Below, piece by piece: positions 18,957 through 61,634 of a DNA stretch of 64,000 nucleotides. Both the position numbers and the translations under genes were made by a program. The notes below the pieces were generated by a model. The model ran no database searches. It worked only from the letters and a program-made list of their open reading frames with translations, and had not been told where the DNA came from. This stretch comes from Rhodoferax ferrireducens (lineage in GTDB: Bacteria; Pseudomonadota; Gammaproteobacteria; Burkholderiales; Burkholderiaceae_C), in the NCBI RefSeq assembly GCF_049302455.1, contig NZ_JBAQMD010000118.1, positions 47,031-111,030 on the forward strand, read 5' to 3'. Position 1 is the first letter of the stretch; each line of letters starts with the position of its first letter.

Positions 18957-19046
18957 TGCGCCCTGATGACCTTGGCACCCGCAGCTCGGATCAGGTAAGG
19001 TCACGGTCCTCAAGGCCATCTTTTCTCGGCTGACCGGAAGAAGTGC

Positions 19047-21062: not shown

Positions 21063-21180
21063 GCCTCCACGCCTCCACGCCTGAAAAGATTCTGCATTTC
21101 ACCCACCTTTTGTAGCAAGGTGATGTAGCAGTCAGCACCGATTCCCAAAAGCCCTTGTAGATCAAGAAGTTGGGAGGTGT

Positions 21181-21256
21181 TGGTGCGGCTGGCGGGGATC
21201 GAACCCACGACCCTTGGCTTCGGAGGCCAATACTCTATCCACTGAGCTACAGCCGC
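21181..21256 (-). tRNA. tRNA-Arg (anticodon CCG), with encoded CCA
   Basis: The reverse complement GCGGCTG-TA-GCTC-AGTGGATA-GAGT-A-TTGGC-CTCCGAA-GCCAA-GGGTC-GTGGG-TTCGATC-CCCGC-CAGCCGC-A-CCA folds by eye as a 76-nt cloverleaf. The anticodon loop CTCCGAA gives CCG. Confidence 0.9.
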
Positions 21257-21912: not shown

Positions 21913-21939
21913 GATGCCGACTGTCAGTCGGCATTTTTT
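21913..21939 (+). terminator. Rho-independent terminator after the cytochrome c5 gene
   Basis: Stem atgccgact/agtcggcat with loop gtc, followed by a run of 6 T. Confidence 0.65.
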
Positions 21940-21949
21940 ATAGTATTTT

Positions 21950-22001
21950 GGCCTCTAGCCCCCGTGAAATATAGGCATATCGCTACTTATTTGGTAGCAA
22001 T
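21950..22001 (-). repeat. Dispersed ~45-bp repeat, copy 1 (minus orientation)
   Basis: The reverse complement reads ..caaataagtagcgatatgcctatatttcACGGGGGCTAGAGGC. It shares the A-rich-(A/G)TAGC(T/G)...ACGGGGGCTA(G/C)AG(G)C layout with the other copies. Confidence 0.65.
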
Positions 22002-26662: not shown

Positions 26663-26707
26663 GCATGGGCCTGCAGCCCTGCGGCGTCTTGCTTATGTGC
26701 CCTATTT

Positions 26708-26749
26708 GCTTCCAGCCCCCGTTGAATGGGCTTGATCAGCTATTGAATT
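26708..26749 (-). repeat. Dispersed ~45-bp repeat, copy 2 (minus orientation)
   Basis: The reverse complement reads aattcaATAGCTgatcaagcccattcaACGGGGGCTggAAGC. Confidence 0.6.
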
Positions 26750-26866
26750 TGCAGCATTTTCCAGCGCGGGCGCGGGCTTAAAATTCATACGGTTACACCT
26801 CGCACAACCCAATCTGTCCGGGACACCAACCGCTTTCTGGTTTCTTCTTGACTGGCACCCAACTCC

Positions 26867-31746: not shown

Positions 31747-32655
31747 TCAGCTCAGCACCACGCTGCTCAGGCGGCGCCGGTAGGTCGCCACCACCGGGTC
31801 CACCGGCGGAATCTGGCCGTCGGCGACCTTGACCTTGGGCGGCTCGATGATGTCCAGAATCGCGATATAGGTCTTGCGCGCGAGGTCGTCGGCCCAGCTC
31901 TTGTCGCGCATCAAAATTTCCAGCAGCTCGTCCATGGCGCCGGTCCAGTCCTGCGCTGCGATCAGCGATTGGGCTTTGCCAAAGCGGGCATCGAAATCAC
32001 GCTTGTTCGCCGCAATCTTTGCATCAAATCCAGTTGTAGCCCCCGTCAAATCTGCGCGATCAGCTGCAAAATCAATAGCGTCCATCCAGCGCTGCAACGA
32101 ATCAAAGCGGCGCACCAACGCAGTCTTGGCAATCACCGGGGCGAAGGCGACTTTGGCGTCGTCCGTGCGCCCCTCTTGCAGCAGCCGTTTGACGTAGTTG
32201 AAGCGGGCCTCCTCGTCGTCCGGATTCTTGAGCACGGCCTGCTGCAGCGCCTCGCGGATGGCGTCGGGGTCGTTCTCATCGGGTGCGTCCGACACCGTCT
32301 CGGCCGTCACCTCGGCCTCCAGCACCTCACCGGCGGGCAGGTGTTTGTCCAGAAACGCCTTGATTTCGCCCTCCGGCAGGGCGCCCATGAAGCCATCGAC
32401 CGGCTTGCCCTGAAACATCAGCACGCAGGTGGGGATGCTGCGCACGCCAAAGGCCTGGCTGAGTTCCTGCTCCTGGTCGGAGTCGATCTTGACCAGCTTG
32501 AAGCGCCCGGCGTAAGCCGTCTCCAGCTTTTCCAGCAGCGGGCCGATGACTTTGCACGGGCCACACCAAGGGGCCCAGAAGTCGACCAGCACGGGAACAG
32601 TCATCGAGGCGGCAACCACCTCGGCGTCAAAATTTGCAATCGTTACGTTCATCAT
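31747..32655 (-). CDS. Thioredoxin-domain / TPR co-chaperone (YbbN-like)
   Basis: ORF 31747..32760, with MMNVTIANFDAEV (ATG 32655) preferred. WAPWCGPCK active site, then a helical TPR-like C-terminal half. Confidence 0.85.
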   Translation of the reverse strand: MMNVTIANFDAEVVAASMTVPVLVDFWAPWCGPCKVIGPLLEKLETAYAGRFKLVKIDSDQEQELSQAFGVRSIPTCVLMFQGKPVDGFMGALPEGEIKAFLDKHLPAGEVLEAEVTAETVSDAPDENDPDAIREALQQAVLKNPDDEEARFNYVKRLLQEGRTDDAKVAFAPVIAKTALVRRFDSLQRWMDAIDFAADRADLTGATTGFDAKIAANKRDFDARFGKAQSLIAAQDWTGAMDELLEILMRDKSWADDLARKTYIAILDIIEPPKVKVADGQIPPVDPVVATYRRRLSSVVLS

Positions 32656-33253: not shown

Positions 33254-34464
33254 GCGTCAAGACCATTCTGCCCGGCACGACAGGCACGGCCGCAACCGCC
33301 GGCAGCGGCCAGCAAACGACGCTTGGCGTCATGGGCGGCGGTCAATTGGGCCGCATGTTTGTGCAGGCGGCGCAAGCCATGGGTTACTTCACCGCGGTGC
33401 TCGACCCGGACGTGATCAGCCCGGCCGGGCTGGTGAGTCACTACCACATTCAGAGCGACTACCTGAACGAGCAAGGCCTGGCGCAGCTGATGCAGCGCTG
33501 CGCGGCGATCACCACCGAGTTTGAGAACGTGCCCGCTCCCGCCTTGGTCACGCTGGGCGCGCACCGTCCCGTGGCGCCGGGTGCCGAGGCGGTCGGCATC
33601 GCACAGGACCGGATCAAGGAAAAAGCGCATTTTGTGCGCTGTGGCGTGCCGGTAGCACCCTATGCGGTGATTGAAACAGCGGCGCAGCTGGCGGCGGTGG
33701 CCGACGATTTGCTCCCCGGCATCCTGAAGACTGCGCGCCTGGGTTACGACGGCAAGGGCCAGCTGCGCGTTGGCAGCCGGGCCGAACTGGCTGCGGCCTG
33801 GGATGAACTGAAGAACGTGGCTTGCGTGCTGGAAAAAATGCTGCCACTGCAAGCCGAGTGTTCGGTGATCGTGGCGCGCGGCTGGGACGGCAGCTGCGTC
33901 AACTTCGCGCCACAACTCAACCTGCACCGCGACGGCATTCTGGCGGTCACCCAGGCTTATGAAGGAAATATGCCTTCAGCCCTCGTGCAGCAAGCGGTAG
34001 CAGCTACCAAATCAATAGCAGATGAATTGCGGTACGTGGGTGTTCTGTGTGTCGAGTTTTTCTTGCTGCAAGACGACTCCAAAGCGGCGCAGACGCTGGG
34101 CACCTTGATCGTGAACGAGATGGCGCCGCGCCCGCACAACAGCGGCCACTACACGCTGGACGCCTGCGACCTGTCGCAGTTTGACCTGCAGGTGCGCACG
34201 CTCACCGGTTTGCCGCTGCTGCAGCCGCGCCAGCACAGCCCGGCCATCATGCTCAATTTACTGGGCGATTTGTGGATCGATGGCGCGTCGCCGCCGTGGG
34301 ATCAGGTGTTGGCGCTGCCGGGTGCGCATCTGCACCTGTACGGCAAGCTCAAAGCCAGCAAGGGCCGCAAGATGGGACACCTGACCTTCACCGGCGCCAC
34401 CGTGGCCGAGGTGCGCGCCACGGCGCTGGCGGCAGCCCGGCTGCTGGGCATTGACCCCTTTTGA
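33250..34464 (+). CDS. purK: N5-carboxyaminoimidazole ribonucleotide synthase
   Basis: 404 aa with an ATGA overlap to purE. ATP-grasp idiom ([32 protein letters not shown]). Confidence 0.9.
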
Positions 34465-35699: not shown

Positions 35700-36386
35700 T
35701 TAGAACTTGTAGCCGACAGCGATACCGTAGGCGGCTGGGTCCAGGTCCATGTCCATGTGTTGACCGGTGGACATGTGGGTGGTGGTGCTGAGCTTGGACT
35801 TGGTATAGAAGACGTCAATAAACCACTTCTCATTCAAGGCCAGCGTAGCGCCGATTTGCGGCGTCAGGATGAACTTGGCATCGACGTTGAGTTGGGTCGG
35901 CGGGCCACCGGGGTTGGTGGTGGCGGTCAAACGGCCGCTGCCTTCTTCGTTAAAGAAATAGGCGTAAGTGACACCCAAGCCGATGTAGGGTCGGAACTTG
36001 GCATTGGCCTCCAGAAAACGGTATTGCAGGAACAGGGTCACCGGCAGCGCCTGAACCGTGCCCAGGTCACCGGAGCCGGCCATGGAGCCGGCACCAATGA
36101 TCCTGTGCTTGAAGGGCAGCGCCAGCGGCACGTCCACCGACCAGTGATCGGTGTACATGTAGGTGATACCGCCGCTGAGCTGGGTGTCAGCGCCGACATC
36201 GGACTTGGTGCAGCCGGTGGGGCCGTCGCCGAAATCAGGCGCCGACAGGCAGCTGCTGTTGACCGATGGCGCCAGTTTGGTGACACCGGCACGCACCATC
36301 CAGGTGCCTGCGGTTTGGGCGCAGACGCCACCGGCAGTTAGCATGGCGGCAACCGCCACAGTGAGGAACTTCACTTGATATGTCAT
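35700..36386 (-). CDS. ompW: OmpW-family outer membrane protein
   Basis: 228 aa with a signal peptide. OmpW idiom (W.VRAG.T.L.P, terminal GIAVGYKF). Confidence 0.85.
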   Translation of the reverse strand: MTYQVKFLTVAVAAMLTAGGVCAQTAGTWMVRAGVTKLAPSVNSSCLSAPDFGDGPTGCTKSDVGADTQLSGGITYMYTDHWSVDVPLALPFKHRIIGAGSMAGSGDLGTVQALPVTLFLQYRFLEANAKFRPYIGLGVTYAYFFNEEGSGRLTATTNPGGPPTQLNVDAKFILTPQIGATLALNEKWFIDVFYTKSKLSTTTHMSTGQHMDMDLDPAAYGIAVGYKF

Positions 36387-36413
36387 AAAGGTTTCTCCTT
36401 GAAGTTCAATGGA

Positions 36414-37829
36414 TTAAAGCCAGCCCGCGATGACCAAGGCCTTGGTCACGTACTGGGCCAACAGCTTGTGACCGTAGGGCGTGGGGTGGACGTTGTCGGC
36501 GAAGAGGTAATGCGACGTATCACCTGCGATGAGGTTGCCTGCGTTGCAGACCAAAGAACTGCCGTCCGCTTTTCCTGCCGTGGCCAGCACGTTGACGGGG
36601 GAAGTCAGGTTACAAGCCACATCCTTCACATTCGTCAAGGCGTAATGCGCCTTGTTCGCCAGTTGCCGCCGATTCTCGGCAAAGGCATCCACAAAGACCA
36701 CACCGGGGACCGCAACACCGGGCGAAACTTCCAACGCGGTTTGCAGGGTCGTATTGAATTGGGACGTCAATGCCAACACAAGCTGCTGCTGGGAATTGTC
36801 CTTGATGCTGCCATCCGTGTTGTAAACAATGGTGGCCATCGCCATCGGTGTCTGGCTGACATCGGGAATATTGACCACCACCACATGCTTGGCTCCGCTG
36901 GTGATCATGCTCTTGACAGAATTGGCCAGGGCGGTGGCTGCAACGGCCATGCCGGTCATCGCATTGGCTGCACCGGTCGTGGCGAGGTAGGTGTTCCCGG
37001 CGGCGATGGCGGCCGCACCGGCGGTCTGAGCAATCGTTGCCGCGTTGGCTACAGCGGTGTTGGTGTAGCCGTTCATTGCGGCGTGAGTGGCGGCAGCCGT
37101 CACGGCAGCAGTGATGATGCTGGTCGGCGTCGCCGTTGTTTTAACCGCTTCGGTCTGAATGGCGCCGCCAATAAACGCCTGAGCGGCCAACTGATTGGCC
37201 GGAGGTGCACCAGCCACCAGTTGGGTCACCAACGATGTCGCCAGAGCAGCACCACCGGCTGCAGTGGCATCCGCTTTTAACTTGTCGGTCTGCCCAAACA
37301 AGTCGTTGGCACCACCGAGCACCGTGACCAGTTCGGTACCAGCAAAACTGCCACCATCAGCCAGATAGTTTGCAATCTGCGTCACCACGGGCTCGGTGAG
37401 CGGGCCGGCTGTAAATCCAACACCGACAGGATTGCCCACCCCTTTTGGATCGACAACACGGGCGCCGCCCTGGGCGTAGTTGGTGCACCCTGCGACCACG
37501 CTTTCGACGACACCAAAGCCACCCGTACGCGCCGCGCAGGATGTCTTGCCAATGGCCGCGGCTGAAACCAATTGCGCCCAGTTGTAGCTGGGGACTGGAT
37601 CGGCACCAACGGCACTGGCACTGGCAATGCCATTGACGGTAAACATGCCCCCGCCCGAAGCTTTGATCGGACCCACGCTGTAAGTCCCGGCATCGCTCAG
37701 GCTGTCGCCAAACGACACCACGCTGGCGTATTTGACAGCCGGGGACTGGTCCCCATCACCGCCGCCGCCGCAGGCGGCCACCAGCAGCGCGGCGGCGAAG
37801 GCCGTTGCTAGAACTCTGAATTGCTTCAT
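36414..37829 (-). CDS. Secreted SGNH/GDSL-family hydrolase (lipase/esterase)
   Basis: 471 aa with a lipoprotein-type signal (LLVAACGG). Block I VSFGDSLSDAG and block V FADNVHPTPYGH. A long Ala/Thr-rich insert lies between the blocks. Confidence 0.8.
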   Translation of the reverse strand: MKQFRVLATAFAAALLVAACGGGGDGDQSPAVKYASVVSFGDSLSDAGTYSVGPIKASGGGMFTVNGIASASAVGADPVPSYNWAQLVSAAAIGKTSCAARTGGFGVVESVVAGCTNYAQGGARVVDPKGVGNPVGVGFTAGPLTEPVVTQIANYLADGGSFAGTELVTVLGGANDLFGQTDKLKADATAAGGAALATSLVTQLVAGAPPANQLAAQAFIGGAIQTEAVKTTATPTSIITAAVTAAATHAAMNGYTNTAVANAATIAQTAGAAAIAAGNTYLATTGAANAMTGMAVAATALANSVKSMITSGAKHVVVVNIPDVSQTPMAMATIVYNTDGSIKDNSQQQLVLALTSQFNTTLQTALEVSPGVAVPGVVFVDAFAENRRQLANKAHYALTNVKDVACNLTSPVNVLATAGKADGSSLVCNAGNLIAGDTSHYLFADNVHPTPYGHKLLAQYVTKALVIAGWL

Positions 37830-38246: not shown

Positions 38247-39702
38247 TGTCTCTCACCGTCCAGTCCAGCAGCGCATCGATGGCCGGGCGCGCGGCATTGG
38301 CGTTGGGGTGATTGATGAGGGCGACCAGCACGTAGCGCCGGCCGCTATGGGCATGCACATAACCGGCTACCGCCACCACGCCGCGCAGGCTGCCGGTTTT
38401 GAGGTGCGCCCGGCCCTGCGACTGCGCTTGACTGCGTTTGAGCGTGCCGTCGACACCGGCAATCGGCAGTGAACTCATCAGTTCGGGCATCAGGGGCGAC
38501 ACGTAGGCCGACTGCAGCAGGCGCGCCAGCGCCTGGGCGCTGATGCGCGCCTCGCGCGACAGGCCAGAGCCGTTGTCCAGCGTGGGCACGTCCGTGGCAC
38601 CGATGCGTTGCTGCCACCAACGCTGCACCAGGTCGCGCGAAGCCGCACGCGTGCCCTGGCCCTGGGCACTCAGGCTGAGCGTCAGGAACAGTTGTTGCGC
38701 CATCACGTTGTTGCTGTACTTGTTGATATCGCGGATCACCTCGGCCAGCGGCGGCGAAGCGACTTCAAACGTGGGCGGCAGCCCCAGGGCCAGCGGCGGC
38801 ACGGAGCCCAAGCGCACCGTGCCGCCAAGCTGGCCGCCCATTTGTTGCCACAGGCCTTGCACAGCGCGCGCGTTGTAGCTGGCGGGGTCGGCGTAGGCGA
38901 CGGGCCAGACTTTCTCCAGGCAACTCGCCGGGTAGCTGCCCGCAAAGCGGATGCGCGCCGGGTCAGAGAAATCAGCCCTGAGCGCTGCCCGGTAGTCGCC
39001 ACAACTGCCATTCGTGCCCTTTGTCCCATTGGTCCCATTAGTCCCCTTCGTTCCATTGGCCAGTGGCACGCTGGTCTGCATCTGCACACCATACAGCGGC
39101 GGCTCGAACTGCACCGATGCGCTGTTGGCTGCCAAGTCCGGCACGAAGGTCATGACGACGGATTTGAAGTTGAGCAGCAGCGCGTCGGGCGCCACGTTGT
39201 AGGGGCGCAGCGGCTCGCCGTCAAAGCTGGCCGGGTCCACGTCCAGCGGCTCAAAGGCGCTGTGATCCAGCACCATGTCACCGGCGATTTTTTGGATCCC
39301 CAGGCCTTGCACCCGGCGCAGCAGCAGCCACAGGCGCTCGGCCACCAGCTTGGGGTCGCCCTGGCCCTTGATATAGAGATTGCCAAACAAAGTGCCGTCC
39401 CTCACGGCGCCTTCCACATAGACCGGCGTGCGCCAGCTGTAGGCCGGGCCCAGCAGGTCCAGCGCCGCGTAGGTGGTCACCAGCTTCATCACCGAGGCCG
39501 GGTTCATGGGCACGTTGGCGCGGTAGCTCAGGCGCGGCGGCAATTTGCCCTCGGCATCCATCACCAGCAGCGCCACGGCATCGCGCGGCACCTGGGCGCG
39601 CGCCAGCGCCGCGTCCACCTCGGGCGGCAGGTTTTGTGCCAGGGCGGGCCACAGCGTCAAGGCCCCGATCAAAATAGCCAGCAAGCGAATAGGGGAGGAC
39701 AT
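38224..39702 (-). CDS. dacB: D-alanyl-D-alanine carboxypeptidase/endopeptidase (PBP4)
   Basis: ORF 38224..39987, with ATG 39702 (MSSPIRLLAILIGALTLWPALAQ signal) preferred. Active site PASVMKL and PBP4 idiom DGSGLSR, LKTGSL. Confidence 0.85.
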   Translation of the reverse strand: MSSPIRLLAILIGALTLWPALAQNLPPEVDAALARAQVPRDAVALLVMDAEGKLPPRLSYRANVPMNPASVMKLVTTYAALDLLGPAYSWRTPVYVEGAVRDGTLFGNLYIKGQGDPKLVAERLWLLLRRVQGLGIQKIAGDMVLDHSAFEPLDVDPASFDGEPLRPYNVAPDALLLNFKSVVMTFVPDLAANSASVQFEPPLYGVQMQTSVPLANGTKGTNGTNGTKGTNGSCGDYRAALRADFSDPARIRFAGSYPASCLEKVWPVAYADPASYNARAVQGLWQQMGGQLGGTVRLGSVPPLALGLPPTFEVASPPLAEVIRDINKYSNNVMAQQLFLTLSLSAQGQGTRAASRDLVQRWWQQRIGATDVPTLDNGSGLSREARISAQALARLLQSAYVSPLMPELMSSLPIAGVDGTLKRSQAQSQGRAHLKTGSLRGVVAVAGYVHAHSGRRYVLVALINHPNANAARPAIDALLDWTVRDNGAHVPD

Positions 39703-39745
39703 GCACCGATTATCCAGCCGCCGCTGCGCCACGGATAATGGCGTG

Positions 39746-40777
39746 ATGCACGCTGCCTCACCCTCGAATTCAAGCGCTTTTTCAGCGCGCACCATCGGCA
39801 TCGCCGCCGCCGTGGTCACGGTGCTGGTCTGGACCTCGTTCATCCTGATCGCCCGCGTATCAAGCGACCCGGCGCGCGGCGGCACGCTCACCCCCTTCGA
39901 CCTGGCCTTTTGCCGCATCGTCGGCGCCAGTCTGGTGTTGTTGCCCTGGGGCGCTTGGCTGGTGTACCGCGATCGCGATCGCGGCATCCATCAGTCGTCG
40001 CTGCTGGGCGTGTCGCCTTTGTGCTGGCGCGTCACCGCCACGGTGGGCCTGTTTGGCGGGCTGCTGTATGCGCTGGTGGCCTACAACGGTTTTGTGTTTG
40101 CCCCGGCGGCGCACGCCTCGGTGTTGCTGCCGGGCAGTCTGCCGCTGTGGACGGCGCTGCTGGCGGCGCTGATTTTGCATGACCACATCACGCCGGTGCG
40201 CGCGCTGGGGCTGGGGCTGATCGTTCTGGGCGACCTGCTGGTGGGCGGCAAGAGCCTGATCGGCGCCTTCGACGGCGGCGAGGTCTGGAAGGGCGATCTG
40301 CTGTTCATGCTGGCGGCTTTGACTTGGGCCTGTTACAGCGTGCTGGCGCGGCGCTATCACCTGAACGCGGTGCGCGCCACCATTGCCATCACCGCGTTTG
40401 CGTTTGTGACTTATGTGCCGGTTTACACCGTGCTGCTGCTCGGTGGCTGGGTACAGGGCCAGGTGTTTAGCGCGCCGCTGCGCGAAGTGCTGTTCCAGGC
40501 TGTCTTTCAGGGCTGGGGCTCGGTGGTGGTATCGGGCATCACGTTTACCAAGATGATCCAGCACTTTGGCCCGGTGCGCTCGACCATGATCACGGCGCTG
40601 GTGCCGGGCCTGTCGGCCCTGGGCGCGGTGCTGTTGTTGGGCGAACCGCTGTACTGGAATCTGGCTGCGGGCCTGGTCCTGGTGACGCTGGGGATTTTGT
40701 TTGGGGTGCGGGTGGCGCTACCTGTTGCAATTAAAACAATAGCTTCTCAAGCAGGTAGCACGGGGGCTAGAGGCTGA
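39746..40777 (+). CDS. DMT-superfamily (EamA) permease
   Basis: ORF 39545..40777, whose 5' part is antisense to dacB. ATG 39746 preferred. About 10 TM helices, two-EamA-repeat style. The last 15 codons are supplied by repeat copy 3. Confidence 0.8.
   Translation: MHAASPSNSSAFSARTIGIAAAVVTVLVWTSFILIARVSSDPARGGTLTPFDLAFCRIVGASLVLLPWGAWLVYRDRDRGIHQSSLLGVSPLCWRVTATVGLFGGLLYALVAYNGFVFAPAAHASVLLPGSLPLWTALLAALILHDHITPVRALGLGLIVLGDLLVGGKSLIGAFDGGEVWKGDLLFMLAALTWACYSVLARRYHLNAVRATIAITAFAFVTYVPVYTVLLLGGWVQGQVFSAPLREVLFQAVFQGWGSVVVSGITFTKMIQHFGPVRSTMITALVPGLSALGAVLLLGEPLYWNLAAGLVLVTLGILFGVRVALPVAIKTIASQAGSTGARG
40730..40774 (+). repeat. Dispersed ~45-bp repeat, copy 3 (plus orientation; left flank of the two-gene cassette)
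   Basis: attaaaacaATAGCTtctcaagcaggtagcACGGGGGCTAGAGGC, ending immediately before the DMT stop codon. Confidence 0.7.
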
Positions 40778-43700
40778 TTTTCTTTATAGATTGAGTCGCG
40801 GTCGGCTTTGAGCAGTCCACCACCAGAACTGCGATCTTGTGTCGCAGTTCCTCCGGCACGGTGGCTGCCAGCCGCTGCTGCAACTCTTGTGGTGTTTTGA
40901 CTTTGGCACCGCCGTCAGTTGGGGCTGCTTTCATGTTGCCGGCAAACCAGAAGACCAGGAAGATGCCGTAGCCATCGCTGGCCGGTTCTCTGCAGTATTG
41001 GGCGATCAACTGATTGCCAATCGCTTTCCACACGTCTTTATGCCACTCCCCCTTGGCTTCCATGGGAATGTGGATCAGTCCTGAAGCGACTTCAATATCT
41101 GCCCTCTTTCTGTCAGCGTGGTGGCGCTCGGGCTCTGCCGAAATACTAATCGGAGCAAGACGTGGTTTGAGGGCAGACAACAAGGCGTTACGGCAACGTT
41201 CTTCGGATTTTGGGATGTCACCGGCCCAATATTGGTCATAGTCATCCGTGTCGCTGTCCCGAATCCCACGTATCAGCTGCTTTAGGTGATCAACCGTCAG
41301 AGCGAATAGATCGGCCGCGTTAGCGGGGTTAAGTTTGTTGGCCAGCGTTTGGCAAACTTTTGCGACTGAAGCGGGTTTGAACAGCGCTTTTCGCCGTGTG
41401 ATGCGTTGGTCATACAGAGCGCGGCTGAGCGAGTCGCCCCAGTGTTTCAAGTCTTGCCGCTGCTGCAGAGCCGTCAGGGCATCTAGTGCAGCATCGTCGG
41501 GCTTGCCTGCAAGCGCTGAAATCAGACTTTCAACATAGCGGCCCATCTCCATTTCCGGGGTAACCCAGCCGGACCCCCTTACCCAAGATGGATTTGAACG
41601 AGAACCCAATAGGCCGATCAGAAAGGATTGTGTCGCGACGGGCAGATCGGCCTGCAAGCGGCCTCTTCCTCTGCGTTCATGAACTAGCGCAAACACATGG
41701 CTGATGCGAACCTGGGTTTTCTCAACAAACTGTTGGGTGCGTTCCAGATACAGCTCGGGCGCAAGCAAGACACCGGCCGTCAGCCAGTAAGCGTGTTGTG
41801 CCACATCCATGCCTTTGGTGCTAAGTTTGCTGGCAATTAACGAGAGCTGGGTTTCTCGGGATACGCGACCCATCATCGAGACGATCAACAGCCGCAGGCT
41901 CGGCAACTGCTTCTTGCTTGCTTTGACGGGAAAGTCAGCGATAAGCTTCGGCGAAATTTGACTTGCAACTGCCGCGTAGTCTGCGTCAAGGGCCAGTACC
42001 TGCAAACCATCAACATGTTCTCTTTTTGCGCCGATTTGTTGGCTTATCAAGCGCTGGAGGACGTTGGCCAAAACCGTGGGGCGTTGTGTCAGCAGTTGCT
42101 TGAACCAGACGGGTGTTTCATAGAAGTTGTTGGTCAGACGAAAAGCGACTACCGTTTCCAAAAGGGCTGGCGGCAGATCAAACGCCGCCGCTGGGTCTTC
42201 TGCGTAGCGCAGTTCCATGGCGGCGAGGCAGGGCGCCGCCAGGCTGTAGCGTCGACCTTTGGTGTGGAGATCAACGATATCGGCCGCGGAAGGCAGGTTA
42301 TCGCGGAACAGGCACTGGCGCAAGCCATGCAGGGCAAGGCGAACCCATTCCTTGTCTTGGTTCAGTAACTCAAGCAGGCGAGTTTCAGGATTTTTCTCAT
42401 CTGAACGCCGAAAAAAGTTGAGGTAGGCGTTTGCCACCTCGACCAACGCGCCTAAGTGAGCCGGACCGGTAGCAAAACCGGACAGTGTTTCGCTAAAGAA
42501 TTTGATCGTCTGACGTGACTCCTCGGCGGCACGCTCTTTGTACTTGATCTCATGGTCAATATATTCTTGCTCGGGCTCAAGTGGCGGATAGGGACAGCGA
42601 AGAAAATCCGCGACCCAGACGGCATCGATTGAGTGGTCGGCGGACCAGTTTTCTAGAAGTTCAATTGCAGTGTTTGGCCCCGTTCTTTGATGGGTTAGCT
42701 GAAACGATTCGGTAACCAGCTGGCGCCGCAAGTTCTCATCAATGCTTGCTTCGGCCAGCGACAAATACCAAAGCATGGCGTCGTCAGGCTCAGGCGCGCC
42801 ATAAAGCTTCGCGCGAATCCACCACAAATTACGGAAGACAGTTTCGCTCGTATTGGCTTGCACGGATAAGCCATGTTCAAACAATGCTTTGTAAATAGCG
42901 GGGCGCTCGCCAAGCCATTGCGCTAAGGCGGCCTTGTTTGGTTGATCAAGCGGGCAGTGCTGGTGAGGGCCCAAGCCCAGGGACAGCCAGTTGTAAAGCC
43001 GTCGCACATCAATTCGGTCCCCGTTCTGTGTCACGCCTCGTACCAGCAATTCACCTACGATTTGGGGCGAGCCCATGTGGTCGTGCTGGTTGCTGAGCTG
43101 ATAACCTGTCGAAAACAAGGCATCCAACAAGATTGGAACGTCTTCCGGTGGTGTTTTTTCTTTTGACAGGTCATGCCAAAACTGCCAGTAGGAGCCCAGC
43201 AGTTGCTCAGACTTGGGTTTCCTGAAGTACCGCCATACCTCTGCTGGGGAAATATGGTTGGGATAGAGGACTTGCAGCAGCGTACCCAGAAGCTCGTCTT
43301 CCAAGTCCTCTACGACGTTGCTGTGAACGTCCGCCAGCAGTTGTGTGAGTGTTGACCAGCTGTTGTCTTCTTGCGCATAGGTGGCAAGAATTTCTAATGC
43401 TTCTTTGCGTGAGCCTGACCAATACGTTTTATCGCGGACCACCTGTTCCAACTCTGGGGCCAGGGTTGGCATGTGCTGCCCATGCGCCAAGGCATCCAAT
43501 ACGCAATCGAGCAACGCCAGATGCGGCGAGTTGCGGTCGGCCGATTGCAGCAGGGCTTTGAAATCTCCTGCCATGTCCGCCGTCGCCAAGGCGCCAAAGG
43601 AATGGCTCGCCCAATTCTGGTTGCGAAAATAGGTGTAGCGCGTGGCTTCATCACGCAAGGCGTCGAGTACCTGCAATTTCTCAGTGCGGCTGAAGGCGCG

Positions 43701-44885
43701 CACGTCGCCGTTCAGCACCACGCCCAGCGGGTCGCGCTCAATCAACTCGCGGCGCAGTTCCTCTGACGCTGTCGCGGCCAGCCAGGCGTGCAGGCCGCGC
43801 AGTTCGGGCACGATACCAGCATCCTGGCCCAGCATCAACGCCAGAACACGGCTGGCGGGCAAGCCAGCGTGAATGCGAGTAATTAGGTAGTGCGCGCCCA
43901 GATACTCCGCTACGGTGCGGTGAACGGGGACGAATTCACTACGGCCAGTCCCTCGGAACAGGCTGGTTCGAAGGGCGGCTTGGCAGGCTGCTATATCGGG
44001 CGCGTTTTCGCCTCGGCTGAGGTCCGTCAACGCCAGAGTGCCCGCGTGGGGTTCGCGTGCTGACTGTCGCGCGATGGCTGCACTGCCGGATAGCAGCATG
44101 ACGGCGCTCAGGTAGCCTGCGGCCTGAAGCATTTGTTCAGAAGGCAGGAGGTCATTTTGTTGTGTGGTGCGGTGTTCCTCGTTCTGCTCTTGAACCAGTT
44201 GCTCGCAGGCCAGTGCATATGTTTCGGTTTTGCTGGCAGGCCAGTGGTTCGACCTGGCGGACATGGCCTTGACCAACATGCGCAAGGTTTGCGGGTTGTC
44301 CAGCAAGCCTTCAAGATCACGGTGTTCGGCCTCGCGCATGAACTGGGCTGCGTCTTGCTCATTGGATGGTTGCCAATGGGCAATCAAGGCCTGGGTTTGA
44401 TTGCGGGTCAAAGGGGCGAGATGCAGCTCTAAAAAGTTGTTGTCACCGACCAAGCGCTGCAGTGCTGCGCTGTCAGTGTTGCCGCGCCAATCCGCCTCCC
44501 GGCAGGAAATCCGAAACTTCGGTGTGCCGAGCTGCTGAAGTTTGCTTCGGATCTGCCCGAGCGGGGTTGATCCGGTCGCGTTGCCCGCCGTCATCTCATC
44601 AAGTCCGTCGATGAAAATCAAGGGACTCTGATCCTTTGGCGAACCCAGTTCCACAAAGTCGCGTGCCGTGGTGTAGTAGCCGGCTTCTGCCTCGCTCAGT
44701 GTTTTGAAAGCGTCTGTTTTCCCGGCGCCGGGGTCGGCAATCAATACCCACGCCGGCACGTCACGGTAGTGGCTCAGGGGTTCAGGGTTGGACAAGGTGT
44801 CGTCTTGCATTCGCTTCATGGCGCTGCGCTCAAGCGGCAGGTGGTCTGAAGTTTGGATTTTGAAGGCTTTCACGTCAGACCTCAC
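40767..44885 (-). CDS. Giant NACHT-like STAND NTPase with a C-terminal PD-(D/E)xK-like nuclease module
   Basis: 1372-aa ORF. The GTG at 44885 overlaps the upstream stop (GTGA), with alternative ATGs at 44819 and 44810. Walker A VLIADPGAGKTDAF and NACHT-style Walker B PLIFIDGLDEM. About 1100 aa of Leu/Ala-rich unassigned sequence follows. The C-terminus RADIEVASGLIHIPMEAKGEW (D-x12-ExK) is followed by the hydrophobic strand GYGIFLVFWF. Confidence 0.75.
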   Translation of the reverse strand: MRSDVKAFKIQTSDHLPLERSAMKRMQDDTLSNPEPLSHYRDVPAWVLIADPGAGKTDAFKTLSEAEAGYYTTARDFVELGSPKDQSPLIFIDGLDEMTAGNATGSTPLGQIRSKLQQLGTPKFRISCREADWRGNTDSAALQRLVGDNNFLELHLAPLTRNQTQALIAHWQPSNEQDAAQFMREAEHRDLEGLLDNPQTLRMLVKAMSARSNHWPASKTETYALACEQLVQEQNEEHRTTQQNDLLPSEQMLQAAGYLSAVMLLSGSAAIARQSAREPHAGTLALTDLSRGENAPDIAACQAALRTSLFRGTGRSEFVPVHRTVAEYLGAHYLITRIHAGLPASRVLALMLGQDAGIVPELRGLHAWLAATASEELRRELIERDPLGVVLNGDVRAFSRTEKLQVLDALRDEATRYTYFRNQNWASHSFGALATADMAGDFKALLQSADRNSPHLALLDCVLDALAHGQHMPTLAPELEQVVRDKTYWSGSRKEALEILATYAQEDNSWSTLTQLLADVHSNVVEDLEDELLGTLLQVLYPNHISPAEVWRYFRKPKSEQLLGSYWQFWHDLSKEKTPPEDVPILLDALFSTGYQLSNQHDHMGSPQIVGELLVRGVTQNGDRIDVRRLYNWLSLGLGPHQHCPLDQPNKAALAQWLGERPAIYKALFEHGLSVQANTSETVFRNLWWIRAKLYGAPEPDDAMLWYLSLAEASIDENLRRQLVTESFQLTHQRTGPNTAIELLENWSADHSIDAVWVADFLRCPYPPLEPEQEYIDHEIKYKERAAEESRQTIKFFSETLSGFATGPAHLGALVEVANAYLNFFRRSDEKNPETRLLELLNQDKEWVRLALHGLRQCLFRDNLPSAADIVDLHTKGRRYSLAAPCLAAMELRYAEDPAAAFDLPPALLETVVAFRLTNNFYETPVWFKQLLTQRPTVLANVLQRLISQQIGAKREHVDGLQVLALDADYAAVASQISPKLIADFPVKASKKQLPSLRLLIVSMMGRVSRETQLSLIASKLSTKGMDVAQHAYWLTAGVLLAPELYLERTQQFVEKTQVRISHVFALVHERRGRGRLQADLPVATQSFLIGLLGSRSNPSWVRGSGWVTPEMEMGRYVESLISALAGKPDDAALDALTALQQRQDLKHWGDSLSRALYDQRITRRKALFKPASVAKVCQTLANKLNPANAADLFALTVDHLKQLIRGIRDSDTDDYDQYWAGDIPKSEERCRNALLSALKPRLAPISISAEPERHHADRKRADIEVASGLIHIPMEAKGEWHKDVWKAIGNQLIAQYCREPASDGYGIFLVFWFAGNMKAAPTDGGAKVKTPQELQQRLAATVPEELRHKIAVLVVDCSKPTATQSIKKISL

Positions 44886-46144
44886 TCCAAATCAAGCCAA
44901 TGCGCCAGTGGATACGAGAGAAACTCAGTCAACTCAACGCCACCCGTGCCGACCAGCAAAGGTTTGCCGGCGGGATGCTGTTTTACAAATTCATGAAGGC
45001 CACCGAGCTTGCCGATGGATGGACCACTTTTCACCTCTATCGCGGTCAGCCGGATGGCATCGGCGATCACAAAGTCCACCTCATGCGGGCTTTCGCGCCA
45101 GTAACTGATCTCCTCGTTGCTGGTCGCCGTGTTGCAAAGATGCGCGCCCACCGTGCTTTCAACCAAACGCCCCCAGTAGCTGCGATCAGCCTGCGCCTGG
45201 GCAAATGTATAAGCTGTGGCGCTGGACATCAACGCGGTATTGAGTACGTTGAATTTCGGCGCAGATGCGCGCCGCCGCGCCGCGCCCACATGGTATTTTT
45301 TCAGCCCGGTTAACAGGCCTGCGTTGCCTAGCAGGTCAAGGTAGCCGGCTAGCGTGGTCTCATTCCCGGCATCCTGCAGCTGCCCTTTGACTTTACCCAA
45401 CGCGAGGATTTGGCCCGAGTAGCTGGCCCCCAATTCAAAAAGTTGCTTGAGCAAGGCTGGCTTGTCCACGCGGGTCATTTGCAGAATGTCGGTGTCGATG
45501 CTGGGTTGCACCAAGCTAGCCAGAACATAGTTGCGCCAGCGGCCTTCGTCGCGTATCAATCGGGCGCTACCAGGATAGCCACCGAAATAAATGTATTCAT
45601 TGAGCGTGAAATCAAACGCCTGGTGCATCTCGATAAATGACCAATGCGTTGCGCGCATGAGCTCGTAGCGACCCGCCAGACTTTCGGTCAAGCCCTTTTG
45701 CATCAGCAGCGGAGAACTTCCCAACAAGATCACGTGCATTTCCAGACCTTGGGCACGGTCCGCATCCCACAAACCTTTGACGGTGTCCGACCAACGTGGC
45801 ACTTTCTGGATTTCATCCAGTACAAAAGCGAAAGGCTGCTCAGGGCTGTTGAGTTTGAATGCTGTGCATTGTTGCCGTGCGTTTCGCCAGCTACGTATCA
45901 GCCAGGCGGCATCCCGGGGCGCCCCCTCAACCTCGCTGGTCTGAGACGTGAAGTCCCCGAATGCCGGTGTGCGAGGCTCGGTGGGCTGGTCGACGGCAAG
46001 AAAATAATGCGCTTTTTTTTCCAGAGCCTGACGCACCAAAGTGGTTTTTCCGACTTGCCTGGGACCGGCCACAATCGTGATGAACAGGGGCGGTTCTTGC
46101 AATCGGTCGCGCAACGCCTGAACTTGACTACGATAAAAGGTCAT
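44882..46144 (-). CDS. AAA+ ATPase of the COG1373 type (AAA_14 + DUF4143)
   Basis: 420 aa. Walker A IVAGPRQVGKTTL and Walker B FAFVLDEIQK. The C-terminal EVDFVIADAIRLTAIEVKSG is the D/ExK-like signature of DUF4143 proteins. Confidence 0.85.
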   Translation of the reverse strand: MTFYRSQVQALRDRLQEPPLFITIVAGPRQVGKTTLVRQALEKKAHYFLAVDQPTEPRTPAFGDFTSQTSEVEGAPRDAAWLIRSWRNARQQCTAFKLNSPEQPFAFVLDEIQKVPRWSDTVKGLWDADRAQGLEMHVILLGSSPLLMQKGLTESLAGRYELMRATHWSFIEMHQAFDFTLNEYIYFGGYPGSARLIRDEGRWRNYVLASLVQPSIDTDILQMTRVDKPALLKQLFELGASYSGQILALGKVKGQLQDAGNETTLAGYLDLLGNAGLLTGLKKYHVGAARRRASAPKFNVLNTALMSSATAYTFAQAQADRSYWGRLVESTVGAHLCNTATSNEEISYWRESPHEVDFVIADAIRLTAIEVKSGPSIGKLGGLHEFVKQHPAGKPLLVGTGGVELTEFLSYPLAHWLDLE

Positions 46145-46273
46145 AAATCATACTGAGTAAATTTGCTCAATATGATTACAAACATATTGAATCATGTCAA
46201 ATGCAGCGCTGACAGTGCATGAGCGACGGCACTTGGATTTGAGTGCGCCCCTGTGAATTCTTCCATTTTTGCT

Positions 46274-46317
46274 ATTAAAAAGGTAGCTGATGACTCAAAT
46301 TTCTCGGGGGCAAGAGG
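46274..46317 (+). repeat. Dispersed ~45-bp repeat, copy 4 (plus orientation; right flank of the two-gene cassette)
   Basis: attaaaaagGTAGCTgatgactcaaatttctCGGGGGCaAGAGG, more diverged than the other copies. It lies between the ATPase promoter region and tsaB. Confidence 0.55.
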
Positions 46318-46344
46318 TTGGTTTGCTCGGTAAAATAATCGCCG

Positions 46345-47061
46345 ATGAATCTGCTCGCCTTTGACACCAGCACCGACATCATGTCGGTCGCCGTGCAGCG
46401 CGCCAACGCAGCAGGCGCAACGACGACGCACCCGGTCTGGCAGCACAGCGGCCCCGGCGGCGCGCAGACCTCAAGCCAGCTGATTCCGACCATCCAGCGC
46501 CTGATGGCGCAGGCCGCCCTGCAATTTGCTGATCTGGACGCGATTGTCTTTGGCCGTGGACCGGGCTCGTTTACCGGTCTGCGCACCGCTTGCTCGGTGG
46601 CGCAGGGCCTGGCTTTTGGCGCGAACCTGAAGGTACTGCCGATCGACACCTTGCTGGCGGTGGCGGAAGAAGCCCGTTTTCAGCAGGTGAGCGCTTTGGC
46701 CCACTGGCAGGTGCTGGCCTTGCTGGACGCCCGGATGGACGAGATGTATGCCGCCGGCTACGTTTTCGATAGTGGCAAGTGGAAGCAGATCAAGGGCTAC
46801 AGCCTGATTTGCCCTGAAGACTTAAGCCAGGATGCCGACTGTCCGCTGGCCGGCAATGTGTTTGCCAACTACGGTGCGCGTCTGCCCGGCGTGGCGCCGC
46901 GCATCGAGGCCCTGCCCGCTGCCCGCGCCCTGCTGCGCCTGGCGCCCGCCCTGCTGGCCGACGGCGCCGCCGTTGCCGCCGGGCAGGCGCTGCCGCTTTA
47001 TATCCGCGACAAAGTGGCCAAAACCACGCTTGAGCGCGCCACTGAGAAGGCGGCGCTGTGA
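46345..47061 (+). CDS. tsaB: tRNA N6-threonylcarbamoyladenosine biosynthesis protein TsaB
   Basis: 238 aa. MNLLAFDTSTD..., GPGSFTGLR idiom. Confidence 0.9.
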   Translation: MNLLAFDTSTDIMSVAVQRANAAGATTTHPVWQHSGPGGAQTSSQLIPTIQRLMAQAALQFADLDAIVFGRGPGSFTGLRTACSVAQGLAFGANLKVLPIDTLLAVAEEARFQQVSALAHWQVLALLDARMDEMYAAGYVFDSGKWKQIKGYSLICPEDLSQDADCPLAGNVFANYGARLPGVAPRIEALPAARALLRLAPALLADGAAVAAGQALPLYIRDKVAKTTLERATEKAAL

Positions 47062-47525
47062 GCGCCGTTCCCAAAACCGTCGAGGTCCGCTTCGAGCCCC
47101 TGACGCCCGAGAAGTTGGACGCCTTGTTGCGCGTGGAGCAGCAAGCCTATGCCCATCCCTGGGAGCGGCGCAACTTCGAGGACTCGATCAATGCCGGCCA
47201 TCAAATCCAGCTCTTGATGGCGCAGGACACCTTGCTGGGCTATTTTGTGGCCATGAAAGGGGTGGACGAGGTGCACTTGCTCAACATCACCGTGGCCCCC
47301 GATTACCAGCGCCAGGGCTGGGCGCAGGTGCTGCTGGACGCGCTCACGCTCTGGGCCAGGGGGCAAGGCGCCGAGTGGTTGTGGCTGGAGGTGCGCGTGA
47401 GCAATGAGCGTGCCATCATGGTCTACGAAGCCCACGGTTTTTGCCGCGTCGGTCAACGCAAAAACTACTACCCCGATGACGATGGTCAGCGCGAAGACGC
47501 GATCGTGATGAGCTTGCGGCTTTGA
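47058..47525 (+). CDS. rimI: Ribosomal protein S18-alanine N-acetyltransferase
   Basis: 155 aa with a stop/start overlap to tsaB. GNAT motif A (YQRQGWAQVLLDAL), in the canonical tsaB-rimI arrangement. Confidence 0.9.
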   Translation: MSAVPKTVEVRFEPLTPEKLDALLRVEQQAYAHPWERRNFEDSINAGHQIQLLMAQDTLLGYFVAMKGVDEVHLLNITVAPDYQRQGWAQVLLDALTLWARGQGAEWLWLEVRVSNERAIMVYEAHGFCRVGQRKNYYPDDDGQREDAIVMSLRL

Positions 47526-47566
47526 ACGCACAAAAAACGACGCGCCAGCTGGGCGAAAATGCGACT

Positions 47567-48463
47567 ATGAGTCTAGCCCTCGATCCCCGCCAGCGCGCCA
47601 TGTTGCAAGAGATGGGGGTGCGCGTCTGGATGCCTGCGGCCGCGGCTGATCTGCCGGTCGCGGCGCCGGCGCTGCCAGCCGCCGTGCAGGCAGCGCCAGA
47701 AGCGCCCAATAATGCTATTAAAACAGTAGCTACCAACATAGCAATGACGGGGGCTACAGCTCAAAAAGTCTTAAAGACTTCAGCACCACCCAAAACCAGG
47801 GAAACGGCTACCAGCACGGGCGTACCCGCCGCTGATGTGGCCGGCCTGGACTGGCCCGCGCTGACGCAGGCCATCGCCACTTGCCAGGCGTGCCCCCTGT
47901 GCACTGGGCGCCGCACCGCCGTGCAAGCGGCGCCCGATGCACCGCGCCTGGCCGATTGGCTGCTGGTGGGCGAGCCGCCCGATGATGCCGACGAGCAAGC
48001 GGGAGCGCCTTTTGCCGGAGCAGCAGGTCAATTGCTCGACAACATGCTCAAGGCGTTGGGCCTGAGCCGCCACGCCGGCAGTGGCGTTGCCGCCCCAGCG
48101 GCTCAAGCGGCGACAGCGGCTTACGTCACCCCGATCGTCAAGTGCCGCCCGGCGCAGACGCGCAACCCGACCCAGGCCGAACTCGCCAGCTGCGAAAACT
48201 ACCTGCGCCGCGAAGTGGCCCTGGTGCGGCCCAAGGTCATCCTGGCCTTGGGCCGGTTTGCCGCGCAGGGCTTGTTGCAGGGCAGTCTGCCCGGTTTGGC
48301 CGGCACGCCGCTGGGCCAACTGCGTGGGCAAATCTACCGCTACCAGGGTATTCCAGTCATCGTCAGTTATCCGCCGAGTTATCTGCTGCGCAGCCCGCAG
48401 CACAAAGCCCGCGCCTGGGTTGATTTGTGCCAGGCGCAGGAGGCCCTGCGGCGCGGCGGCTAA
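47567..48463 (+). CDS. Uracil-DNA glycosylase, family 4, with a long N-terminal extension
   Basis: ORF 47522..48463, with ATG 47567 (MSLALDPRQRAMLQEMGVRVW) preferred and an alternative ATG at 47744. The UDG4 core has the Cys cluster (CQACPLC), GEPPD.. and a C-terminal HPSYLLR-like YPPSYLLRSP. Confidence 0.85.
   Translation: MSLALDPRQRAMLQEMGVRVWMPAAAADLPVAAPALPAAVQAAPEAPNNAIKTVATNIAMTGATAQKVLKTSAPPKTRETATSTGVPAADVAGLDWPALTQAIATCQACPLCTGRRTAVQAAPDAPRLADWLLVGEPPDDADEQAGAPFAGAAGQLLDNMLKALGLSRHAGSGVAAPAAQAATAAYVTPIVKCRPAQTRNPTQAELASCENYLRREVALVRPKVILALGRFAAQGLLQGSLPGLAGTPLGQLRGQIYRYQGIPVIVSYPPSYLLRSPQHKARAWVDLCQAQEALRRGG
47717..47760 (+). repeat. Dispersed ~45-bp repeat, copy 5 (plus orientation; in-frame inside the UDG N-terminal linker)
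   Basis: attaaaacaGTAGCTaccaacatagcaatgACGGGGGCTACAGC, translated in-frame as IKTVATNIAMTGATA. Confidence 0.7.
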
Positions 48464-60937: not shown

Positions 60938-61574
60938 GGGAGGGGTCCTTCTAGCGCTTGGGCTATGTCACAGTAACAGGCGCCGCAGTCGGTGACGCTG
61001 ATGATTTTCTGGTTGAAATGTTCTCAAGGCTTATCGACATAAACTCCGCTTTCTTGATGACTAATTTCATGTCGTTGAAATGCATAGCATGACCTTCTGG
61101 TAATGCATTGCGGGTGGGTCAGCGCAAGCCCGCGACAGAAATATGACGGTCACGTGCTCGGCTGCTCCCAGTCAACGGCGCATCGGGCTAAAAGGAGAGG
61201 GGGCAGCGCTTCGGACTCCACAGTTCGTGGCGACGGGTACCGACTTCGACCTGACGGTGACGCTGGGGGCTATCTGCTGGACCCGATCTGTTTTCGGCAA
61301 CCCCGCGGCCATTTCGCACGAATGCGTCAGGCCGCTGATTGGAAATCGGAATCATGTATTTGTGCTTCCAGAAAAGAGCCTGTGGGCTACACCCGCTCCC
61401 GCAGCAATGCGGGTCCCCATCCCGCTCCCAAGCAGCCCTTGAAGTTGCCAGGCCGGCCATTTGTCGCGTTGGCCAGCGGCATTTGAGTCCAAAACAAAAC
61501 AATAGCGCGAACAGGCCAAGCGACAGATCGATGCCATCTGCTCCGCGGTATCGGCACCGTCGCCAGTCACTCCA

Positions 61575-61616
61575 CTTTTAATAGCTACTCACCAATATAT
61601 GACGGGGGCTACAGCC
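61575..61616 (+). repeat. Dispersed ~45-bp repeat, copy 6 (plus orientation)
   Basis: cttttaATAGCTactcaccaatatatgACGGGGGCTACAGCC, in the non-coding gap between cheW and the gerW-like cluster. Confidence 0.65.
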
Positions 61617-61634
61617 CGATTTACCTTAATAAAA

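Follow-up and report, generated by a model that had tools for sequence, protein, structure and literature searches.

Defence islands and hotspots, in which variable cargo is held between conserved core genes, are known from the pangenomes of Escherichia coli and Pseudomonas. In other systems, such as Campbell-type integration and the attC or pdif cassettes, cargo is found between direct copies of a sequence. A third type of element relevant here are small dispersed repeats; the BRE of Bordetella and Comamonadaceae, for example, has a length of ~90 nucleotides (nt) and a G+C content (GC) of ~69%, and some of its copies lie in or overlap coding sequence (PMC3110155).

The locus described here is a two-gene cassette, consisting of an ATPase gene and the gene of an EruA-type NACHT/STAND NTPase, in a 64,000-nt stretch of Rhodoferax ferrireducens DNA (contig NZ_JBAQMD010000118.1, positions 47,031 to 111,030; referred to as the window, to which the coordinates of the cassette and its surroundings refer). 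The cassette lies between the gene of a DMT permease and tsaB, and a direct copy of a dispersed repeat is positioned at either border. An earlier reading of the DNA (the original prediction) had proposed a swappable accessory locus, in which the repeat acts as a recombination or insertion hotspot or was duplicated on insertion. The swappable nature of the locus is now shown directly by metagenome contigs of the same species, in which position 40780 of the window is joined to 46343. The reading that we prefer, with a probability of roughly 0.65, is that of an accessory two-gene anti-phage cassette in a variable DMT-tsaB slot, where one repeat copy in the empty and two copies in the occupied state would be the footprint of recombination between direct copies.

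Occupied and empty forms of the DMT-tsaB junction

The conserved left flank of the slot is the EamA/DMT permease gene (39746..40777, + strand; 343 codons if called as in contig L081; Pfam EamA, E 1.9e-23), with a PBP4-type peptidase gene further to the left. The conserved right flank is tsaB (46345..47061, + strand; Pfam TsaD, E 1.4e-25; synteny in 80 loci), followed by rimI (47058-47525, + strand; Pfam GNAT) and then udg (Pfam UDG), in agreement with the outside genes named originally. Between the two repeat copies there are only two open reading frames (ORFs), both on the - strand: the EruA-type NACHT/STAND NTPase of 1372 amino acids (aa) (40767..44885; NCBIfam NF058535) and the AAA_14 + DUF4143 ATPase of 420 aa (44882..46144; Pfam AAA_14, E 7.9e-21; DUF4143, E 8.4e-24), the stop codon of the ATPase gene overlapping the EruA start by 4 nt. 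As stated originally, there is no recombinase gene between the repeat copies, and neither a recombinase nor an integrase was found among the genes beside them.

The boundaries of the cassette are defined to the base. In blastn comparisons, the empty loci of two relatives (L003 and L007) are collinear with the window up to 40780 and again from 46343, delimiting a swapped segment of 5,562 nt (40781..46342). Mapping of public metagenome contigs on positions 39000-48000 revealed the same joint within the species: contigs from four runs (X2, X3, X5, X6) join 40780/40781 to 46343, with ~82 unaligned bases at the joint in the one contig long enough to count them, and the spacer of the empty allele measures ~82-96 nt. 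In X5 and X6, the depth is 13-27 over the flanks and 0.7-3.7 over the cassette; in X2, occupied and empty forms coexist; and further same-species contigs are occupied (L081-83, L093-94). Because same-species contigs carry this joint, the locus is a live presence/absence polymorphism. The left breakpoint lies 3 nt past the DMT stop codon, at the end of the conserved core of the repeat. The right repeat copy, 11-18 nt upstream of the tsaB ATG, is located inside the swapped segment, since the right breakpoint sits 2 nt before this ATG. The spacers of empty sites were also considered as deletion scars of the cassette, which was rejected in the absence of similarity above shuffles; the occupied and empty alleles in this species are alternative haplotypes exchanged via the flanks and not simple excision products.

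Across species, the empty form predominates. A TsaB scan with one genome per species yielded 80 loci, mostly from Rhodoferax and other Comamonadaceae, 69 of which have enough upstream DNA to be evaluable. A homolog of the ATPase or of EruA was found in none of the 80 loci (0/69 evaluable species representatives). Empty sites with a single repeat copy, as envisaged in the original prediction, are common: DMT directly adjoins tsaB in 50 of the 69 evaluable loci, and 32 of these 50 have one + copy at the junction, which, compared with the two direct copies in occupied sites, is the relation expected for Campbell-type insertion. In the remaining evaluable loci, tsaB is adjoined by PBP4 (7) or other upstream genes (7), or is separated from DMT by 1.6-6.9 kb of other cargo (5). 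In many genera, the 3' end of DMT reads ..TAGAGGCTGATTT.. and the gene ends in ..GGGCTAGAGGCTGA, with the tsaB ATG 15-30 nt further on. As the DMT 3' end is the repeat copy at empty junctions, the left copy of the window is ancestral and orthologous; it shares 85% identity with its counterpart in the empty locus L001. The closest relative at species level, L001 (TsaB 92%), lacks most of DMT (~residues 63-372) at 2031-2250 of its locus and retains the last 38 codons of DMT, the repeat and tsaB; this loss could be a real deletion or an assembly artefact of the metagenome-assembled genome.

Different cargo at the same site had also been anticipated, and it is found. L024 contains, at 3483-5510, a Schlafen/AlbA_2-HATPase_c_4 gene with that of a 168-aa partner; TctC, a flavin adenine dinucleotide (FAD) monooxygenase and an S41 peptidase follow. 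Three + repeat copies are positioned at the borders of its two cargo modules and between them. A MetE-like gene and a monooxygenase are inserted in L030, GGDEF and ChrR-type cupin genes in L033, L035 and L052, and in L015 (4658-7040) a CHAT-TIR protein and a 196-aa partner adjoin tsaB. Given these differing contents, the slot holds different, partly defence-type cargo depending on the lineage.

The repeat family and the borders of the cassette

The left and right copies noted originally (40730-40774 and 46274-46317) are genuine members of one dispersed family and both are in + orientation. Using nhmmer with a profile built from the eight copies of the window alone, the left ('D') copy is matched at 40725-40790 (+, E 2e-14) and the right ('T') copy at 46269-46334 (+, E 2.8e-12), and the element as defined by the profile measures ~60-65 nt, so that the ~45 bp given for it earlier were too short. 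The other copies are located at 21935-22000, 26692-26757, 32016-32081 and 33956-34020 (all -), at 47712-47777 (+; between rimI and the UDG domain, within the long UDG ORF) and at 61569-61632 (+). All eight score between E 2e-14 and 3e-11, and their alignment has invariant blocks. Because of its profile match and because the motif ATTAAAANNNTAGCT has three occurrences in the window as opposed to 0.05 expected, the right copy is not a chance similarity, a possibility that the original prediction had kept in view. In 1.6 Mb of related Comamonadaceae loci, the window-only profile has 152 matches and an iterated profile 241, corresponding to a density of ~1 per 6-10 kb. The consensus of the copies from these loci is TTGCTATtaAAanagTAGCTGcTnaCGCAngttcnACGgGGGCTAgAGGCtgATTT, and its conserved blocks TTGCTAT, TAGCTG and ACGGGGGCTAGAGGC are conserved in sequence, with no covariation among the conserved columns.

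Numerous copies are fixed at positions that are orthologous between genera, and some have become part of coding sequence, for example of the DMT C-terminus and of the N-terminal part of the UDG ORF. The final 17 codons of DMT (VAIKTIASQAGSTGARG, followed by the stop; 40727-40777) are repeat sequence, and on the opposite strand the left copy also holds the stop codon of EruA. The statement that the copies flank the operon exactly consequently applies to the gene content, as only the two genes lie between the copies, and does not apply to the left border, where the copy includes the ends of both DMT and EruA. The copy in the UDG ORF has an ortholog within the called UDG genes of L081, L084, L089 and L091 and shows that the family is common around the DMT-tsaB locus. 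A further repeat-like stretch (..GGGCTACAGCCTGATTTGCC..) is located at 46757-46813 within the coding region of tsaB and at the equivalent position in relatives. As a ninth copy it was treated as unproven, since only the iterated profile and a 34-nt partial match indicate it and the window-only profile misses it; it may be due to chance or profile contamination.

Attempts to assign the repeat to described elements were negative. Rfam contained no relevant family, neither at the gathering threshold for the whole window nor at E<=10 around the left copy. A structured RNA or DNA hairpin was rejected on the basis of fold z-scores of -0.47 to +0.35 in seven of the eight copies and the lack of covariation; the only structure common to the copies is a 4-nt GCTA/TAGC stem. 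The BRE was likewise rejected as the identity of the repeat, because its sequences in the published supplement (e.g. ..CCAAGATAGCCCCCTCGGGGGGCAGCAAGC..) are unrelated to TTGCTAT..TAGCTG..ACGGGGGCTAGAGGC (PMC3110155).

The suggestion that the repeat was duplicated on insertion was examined by comparing 341 pairs of repeat copies within loci. Their identity has a mean of 55%, a standard deviation (sd) of 8.5 and a 95th percentile of 67%, and values above 90% occur solely in the pairs that flank the cassette in L086-88 and in L099. The flanking copies are identical at 64/65 nt in L086 and at 61/67 nt in L099, and both duplications run 6-9 nt past the element into the coding sequence of DMT. Between lineages, the copies on the DMT side are orthologs of one another. 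On the tsaB side, the copies of L086 and L099 are each similar to the DMT-side copy of the same locus, and those of the window and L084 group together, as an older, diverged pair. The window pair is 68-69% identical, which is the highest value among the 36 pairs in the window and within the top ~3% overall. Thus, the duplication stands out clearly in L086 and L099; for the window the suggestion has to be qualified, as the left copy predates the insertion and the identity of the pair is modest. The near-identical copies in L086 and L099 reflect either independent insertions or continuing exchange between copies. No decayed homology was found beyond the tsaB-side repeat of the window, L084, L086 and L099, and a search for the empty site of the L086 lineage via LigB homologs did not find it, since contexts differed or the contig ended.

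A duplication of different sequence is seen in L105, where the cassette has cfa (CMAS) on one side and a DUF1840 gene on the other (1872-2082 and 7607-7727 of that locus). Its flanks contain a ~128-nt duplication of the cfa/DUF1840 junction (62 nt at 97%, 47 nt at 81%), and a further decayed cfa fragment is located on the promoter side (0/300 shuffles reached its alignment score). Judged from these alignments, the cassette of L105 was inserted independently, and a long stretch of its target was duplicated. Since ordinary gene sequence was duplicated in this case, duplicative insertion would belong to the arrival of the cassette rather than to the repeat; and since the duplication formed without the repeat, the latter is probably a target, an occupant of the DMT/tsaB junction, and not a dedicated signal. 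The notion of the repeat as a recombination hotspot therefore holds for the variability of the site, but a dedicated signal is not borne out, as the cassette is also found elsewhere without repeats.

Proteins, promoter and distribution of the cassette

EruA matches the NCBIfam model NF058535, 'NACHT domain-containing antiphage protein EruA', with 1002.1 bits at an equivalog cut-off of 1000, residues 28-1359 being aligned to positions 9-1318 of the 1318 model positions. Its translation contains a Walker A motif (ADPGAGKTD, with GAGKT) and a Walker B motif (LIFIDGLDE) that fit the GxxGxGK[ST] and hhhhDGhDE motifs of STAND/NACHT proteins; the protein has no Pfam match, including NACHT, even at E 5. 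The C-terminal ~215 aa share an invariant D...ExK (D113/E126/K128) in an alignment (A3) of 16 C-terminal domains, suggesting a PD-(D/E)xK-like nuclease effector. The AlphaFold (AF2) model of this domain has a pLDDT of 54, too poor for a fold search, so that the D..ExK motif is the single basis of the putative nuclease assignment. The ATPase is matched over its full length by the PADLOC PDC-S01 model PDLC04791 (E 1.7e-158), and both of its Pfam domains are above the gathering scores. Neither protein matches a solved structure by sequence. The two are paired in every locus long enough to show both. The antiphage label of EruA is the name of the NCBIfam model only, and we infer the anti-phage function of the cassette from the families of its proteins.

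The central part of EruA (41420..44700, - strand), a putative sensor, is hypervariable. A sliding comparison with the same-species contig L081 gives 59-93% nt identity for the EruA centre and 97-100% for the flanks and both EruA ends; in aa identity, EruA is at 78%, the ATPase at 98%, DMT at 99% and TsaB at 97%. When L093/L094 and L125 are included, the flanks, the ATPase and both EruA ends are 96-100% identical and the centre is mosaic. Within this one species there are at least 3-4 EruA alleles (78%, 81-82% and 73% aa identity among L081, L093/L094 and L125), a pattern suggestive of allelic exchange or of diversifying selection acting on the presumed sensor.

Transcription of the cassette may start from a sigma-70-like promoter, TTGACA-17-AATCAT with TG, which is followed by the palindrome ATACTGAGTAAATTTGCTCAATAT (46150..46200, - strand; promoter scan 10/12). 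The palindrome comprises 24 nt (46150-46173), reads ATACTGAGTAAATTTACTCAGTAT in most loci (L081-L092) with 2 changes in the window, occurs once in the window and overlaps the stretch between the -10 element and the ATG of the ATPase; it is a presumed operator. The spacing of its CTG..CAG arms is 12 nt and differs from that of the E. coli-type LexA box. In an alignment of 8 upstream regions, one of them from the unrelated context L092, the promoter/palindrome block precedes the ATPase gene in conserved form in all genomic settings examined; the block is therefore part of the cassette.

The cassette is indeed lower in GC than its surroundings, with 56.0% for the interval 40787-46269 and 63.6% and 63.3% for the two flanks (63.5% overall), a smaller difference than that implied by the hand counts of the original prediction (50-53% inside, 68% outside), which overstated it. 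At third codon positions, the GC is 63-64% in the cassette as opposed to 72-83% in the neighbour genes. In 12% of the equally sized windows across the 64 kb the GC is as low or lower, because of a second low-GC island at ~3.6-21 kb. Among 12 other hosts, the GC of the cassette is 53-59% in 11 and 63% in L115; relative to the flanks, it is 3.3-17 points lower in 11 of the 12 and slightly higher in L109.

The second island (3628-21256) adjoins tRNA-Arg(CCG) at 21181-21256, and a 41-nt, 85% copy of the 3' end of this tRNA at 3628-3668 resembles an attL/attR arrangement. It includes a type I restriction-modification system (HsdM 11559-13112, HsdS 13102-14328, HsdR 15735-18956), a gene with HTH and M78-peptidase domains (4065-5198), a DUF4268 gene and a 671-aa DUF6538 protein adjoining the tRNA. 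A further segment of the window, 36211-37741, is not collinear with L007 and L002 and is either replaced or highly diverged. It holds a 471-aa ORF (36414-37829), whose 469-aa counterpart in L081 has a weak Lipase_GDSL match only, and no repeat copies were found at its borders.

A total of 2189 EruA homologs were found, mostly in Comamonadaceae-type metagenomes; the contexts of the cassette come from 12 contigs retrieved by exact look-up and from 33 obtained by scanning metagenomes with the ATPase. The cassette is located immediately upstream of tsaB in ~15 lineages and elsewhere in ~10. At the tsaB site, the other neighbour is DMT in L081-85, L089, L099 and L115, a PQ-loop gene in L090 and PBP4 in L091, which is a cultured carrier, Polaromonas sp. 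CG_9.5. The other contexts include L086-88, in which the cassette lies between LigB and an EamA gene, L092/L098, L096, L100, L105 and L109. Distantly EruA-like genes were also found on plasmids (25-32% identity), where they occur singly. With regard to phage or satellite carriage, the ATPase has no match in viral contigs and phage records gave one weak EruA-like match. A degraded cassette is seen between tsaB and DMT in L117 (4728-6580), where residues 1-286 of the ATPase run into residues 1036-1361 of EruA through an internal deletion of ~3.5 kb.

The ATPase is conserved at 88-94% aa identity between lineages, as opposed to ~70-76% for the flanks. Recent horizontal transfer, initially read from these values, was withdrawn, as identity at four-fold sites is similar to or below that of the flanks (cassette versus flanks: 91 versus 90-99 in L081, 60 versus 62-72 in L084, 51 versus 51-71 in L099 and 37 versus 54-66 in L091). 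The high aa identity of the ATPase is instead due to purifying selection, because four-fold-site identity falls in parallel with the flanks.

Origin of the cassette and comparison with known systems

The occupied and empty states could be related in the following manner: In Comamonadaceae, DMT was probably located directly next to tsaB originally, with one repeat forming the DMT 3' end and the tsaB leader, and in the occupied state the cargo would lie between two direct copies of it. This relation of one to two copies would be the product of recombination between direct copies, be it excision or, in reverse, Campbell-type single-crossover insertion of a circular intermediate, neither of which would require a recombinase within the cassette; we infer both the direction of the recombination and its enzymology. 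Present-day gain, loss and re-assortment may then occur by homologous recombination through the conserved flanks, and the sensor part of EruA may be swapped separately as alleles. In the lineage of the window the duplication is presumably old, because its copies are only 68-69% alike and the spacer of the empty allele is unrelated.

Several observations weigh against this reading. For the window alone, the copy identity is weak evidence for a duplication and, given the ancestral left copy, the chance of a second copy at the other border is roughly 10-15%. The right breakpoint, 2 nt before the tsaB ATG, is not in the repeat; the same-species empty spacer matches nothing in the cassette, none of its alignments exceeding those of shuffles, and is thus not a simple pop-out product; and neither a circle junction nor a 'go-back' joint was found among the mapped contigs, assembled contigs being prone to drop rare forms. 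Flanking repeats or duplications are absent from the cassette in L092, L096, L100 and L109 and from the other cargo in L030, L033, L035 and L052. As to function, EruA passes the NCBIfam cut-off by only 2 bits, and a literature search found no paper, experimental or other, that describes EruA as a defence gene. Finally, the divergence of the cassette at four-fold sites tracks that of the flanks, and the pattern might also stem from a single old insertion, numerous losses and a subsequent homogenisation of the copies.

Other explanations differ mainly in the role that they assign to the repeat. The flanking copies might be coincidental, as abundant intergenic elements, and both the arrival and the movement of the cassette might be due solely to double crossovers within the flanking DMT and tsaB sequences. 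The density of the repeat, the ancestral left copy, the limited identity of the window pair, the difference between empty and occupied alleles over the whole intergenic region and the presence of other cargo without repeats all fit this explanation; it is nevertheless unlikely in view of the near-identical duplicates of 65-67 nt in L086 and L099, which exceed the background by >4 sd and have no equal elsewhere in the 1.6 Mb, and of the analogous target duplication at the non-repeat site of L105. At the opposite end, the repeat could be a dedicated att-like site on which a site-specific recombinase encoded at another place acts in trans, the cargo representing mobile modules as in integron attC or XerCD/pdif systems. 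Two direct copies do bracket the cassette in the window, L081, L084, L086, L089 (weakly), L091 and L099, three copies partition the two cargo modules of L024, the L086 cassette adjoins DMT and its repeat even though its other neighbour is LigB and not tsaB, and the blocks of the repeat show the kind of sequence conservation, free of covariation, that is typical of protein-binding sites. Such a site is nonetheless quite improbable: the cassette occurs in at least 6 contexts without flanking repeats, the target duplicated in L105 is ordinary gene sequence, the duplications in L086 and L099 overrun the element by 6-9 nt, most copies are stable rather than mobile, being orthologous across genera even within coding sequence, no recombinase is found in or adjoining the cassette, and attC-like or dif-like structure is missing, with fold z-scores of ~0 in seven of the eight copies.

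Alternatively, the cassette may be an old resident upstream of tsaB in the ancestor of Rhodoferax and Polaromonas that has been lost many times, the empty sites being deletions. This improbable history would account for the occurrence of the cassette at the same site across genera, for four-fold-site identity falling in step with the flanks and for the conservation of the ATPase by purifying selection instead of recent transfer; it is at odds with the lack of the cassette in all 69 species representatives, with a cassette GC below that of the host in nearly every lineage, with the additional occurrence at unrelated loci, with same-species strains that differ in cassette presence and in EruA allele, and with empty spacers that are free of cassette remnants. 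A variant of the preferred reading, which we also consider rather improbable, would make the ATPase-EruA operon a self-contained, integrase-less mobile defence module that enters duplicatively, copying 65 to >100 nt of target, and exits via recombination between the duplicates; the AAA_14/DUF4143 protein, with its PD-(D/E)xK-like domain, might then aid mobility besides or instead of defence. The accessory cassette in a variable slot, with its footprint of recombination between direct copies, is the reading retained for the comparisons below.

In this reading, the locus is a small but phylogenetically wide case of a defence cassette that fills and leaves a slot in the core genome without a recombinase of its own. 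With exact boundaries, both alleles in natural populations and near-perfect duplicates in some lineages, it may provide a tractable system for studying how integrase-less hotspots are filled. In addition, the sensor middle of a NACHT protein appears to be exchanged between conspecific strains while the partner ATPase and the effector end remain nearly invariant, and the ~60-nt repeat is partly built into coding sequence.

Compared with defence hotspots, the locus shares the conserved flanks, several defence-type cargos (EruA + ATPase, CHAT-TIR and a Schlafen-like ATPase), presence or absence within a species, a lower GC and independence from an integrase carried by the element. Unlike those hotspots, the DMT-tsaB slot is very small, with two genes in a space that otherwise spans -4 to ~150 nt, and is conserved across genera; when occupied, it has a duplicated dispersed repeat of ~65 nt at its borders, and some of its cargo is metabolic or regulatory. 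With bNACHT/Avs proteins (NF058535 EruA), the cassette has in common a full-length model match, STAND Walker A and B motifs, a long variable middle, an effector-like C-terminal domain and the allelic hypervariability of the presumed sensor. Unlike them, EruA of this Comamonadaceae clade is translationally coupled to an AAA_14/DUF4143 ATPase; PDC-S01 is listed in PADLOC as a single-gene candidate, whereas here the ATPase gene is always followed by EruA.

The repeat resembles REP/BIME, ERIC, Correia/NEMIS, Rickettsia palindromic elements (RPE) and BRE in its ~60-nt length, its many copies and their mostly intergenic location, and RPE and BRE also in that some copies lie within or overlap coding sequence. 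It differs from small dispersed repeats, including REP/REPIN, in that it has no strong palindrome or stable hairpin and in that its copies are mostly fixed at orthologous positions; no RAYT (Y1 transposase) turned up among the ORFs scanned in the window, where no search aimed at RAYT was made. As in Campbell-type integration and in attC/pdif cassettes, the cargo contains no recombinase and is enclosed by direct copies of a sequence of which the empty site has just one. In contrast to attC/pdif systems, there is no integrase, no R''-L''/L'-R' imperfect palindrome of the attC type and no dif motif, and the duplicated sequence varies by locus (repeat plus DMT end, or cfa/DUF1840 junction), with lengths of 65, 67 and at least 128 nt. 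In its kind, the locus is thus a known one, a defence hotspot with a named NACHT anti-phage family and a PDC-S01-type ATPase. Modestly new are the two-gene slot that extends across genera with base-exact boundaries, the footprints of duplicated targets without a recombinase, the swapping of sensor alleles and a previously undescribed family of Comamonadaceae repeats.

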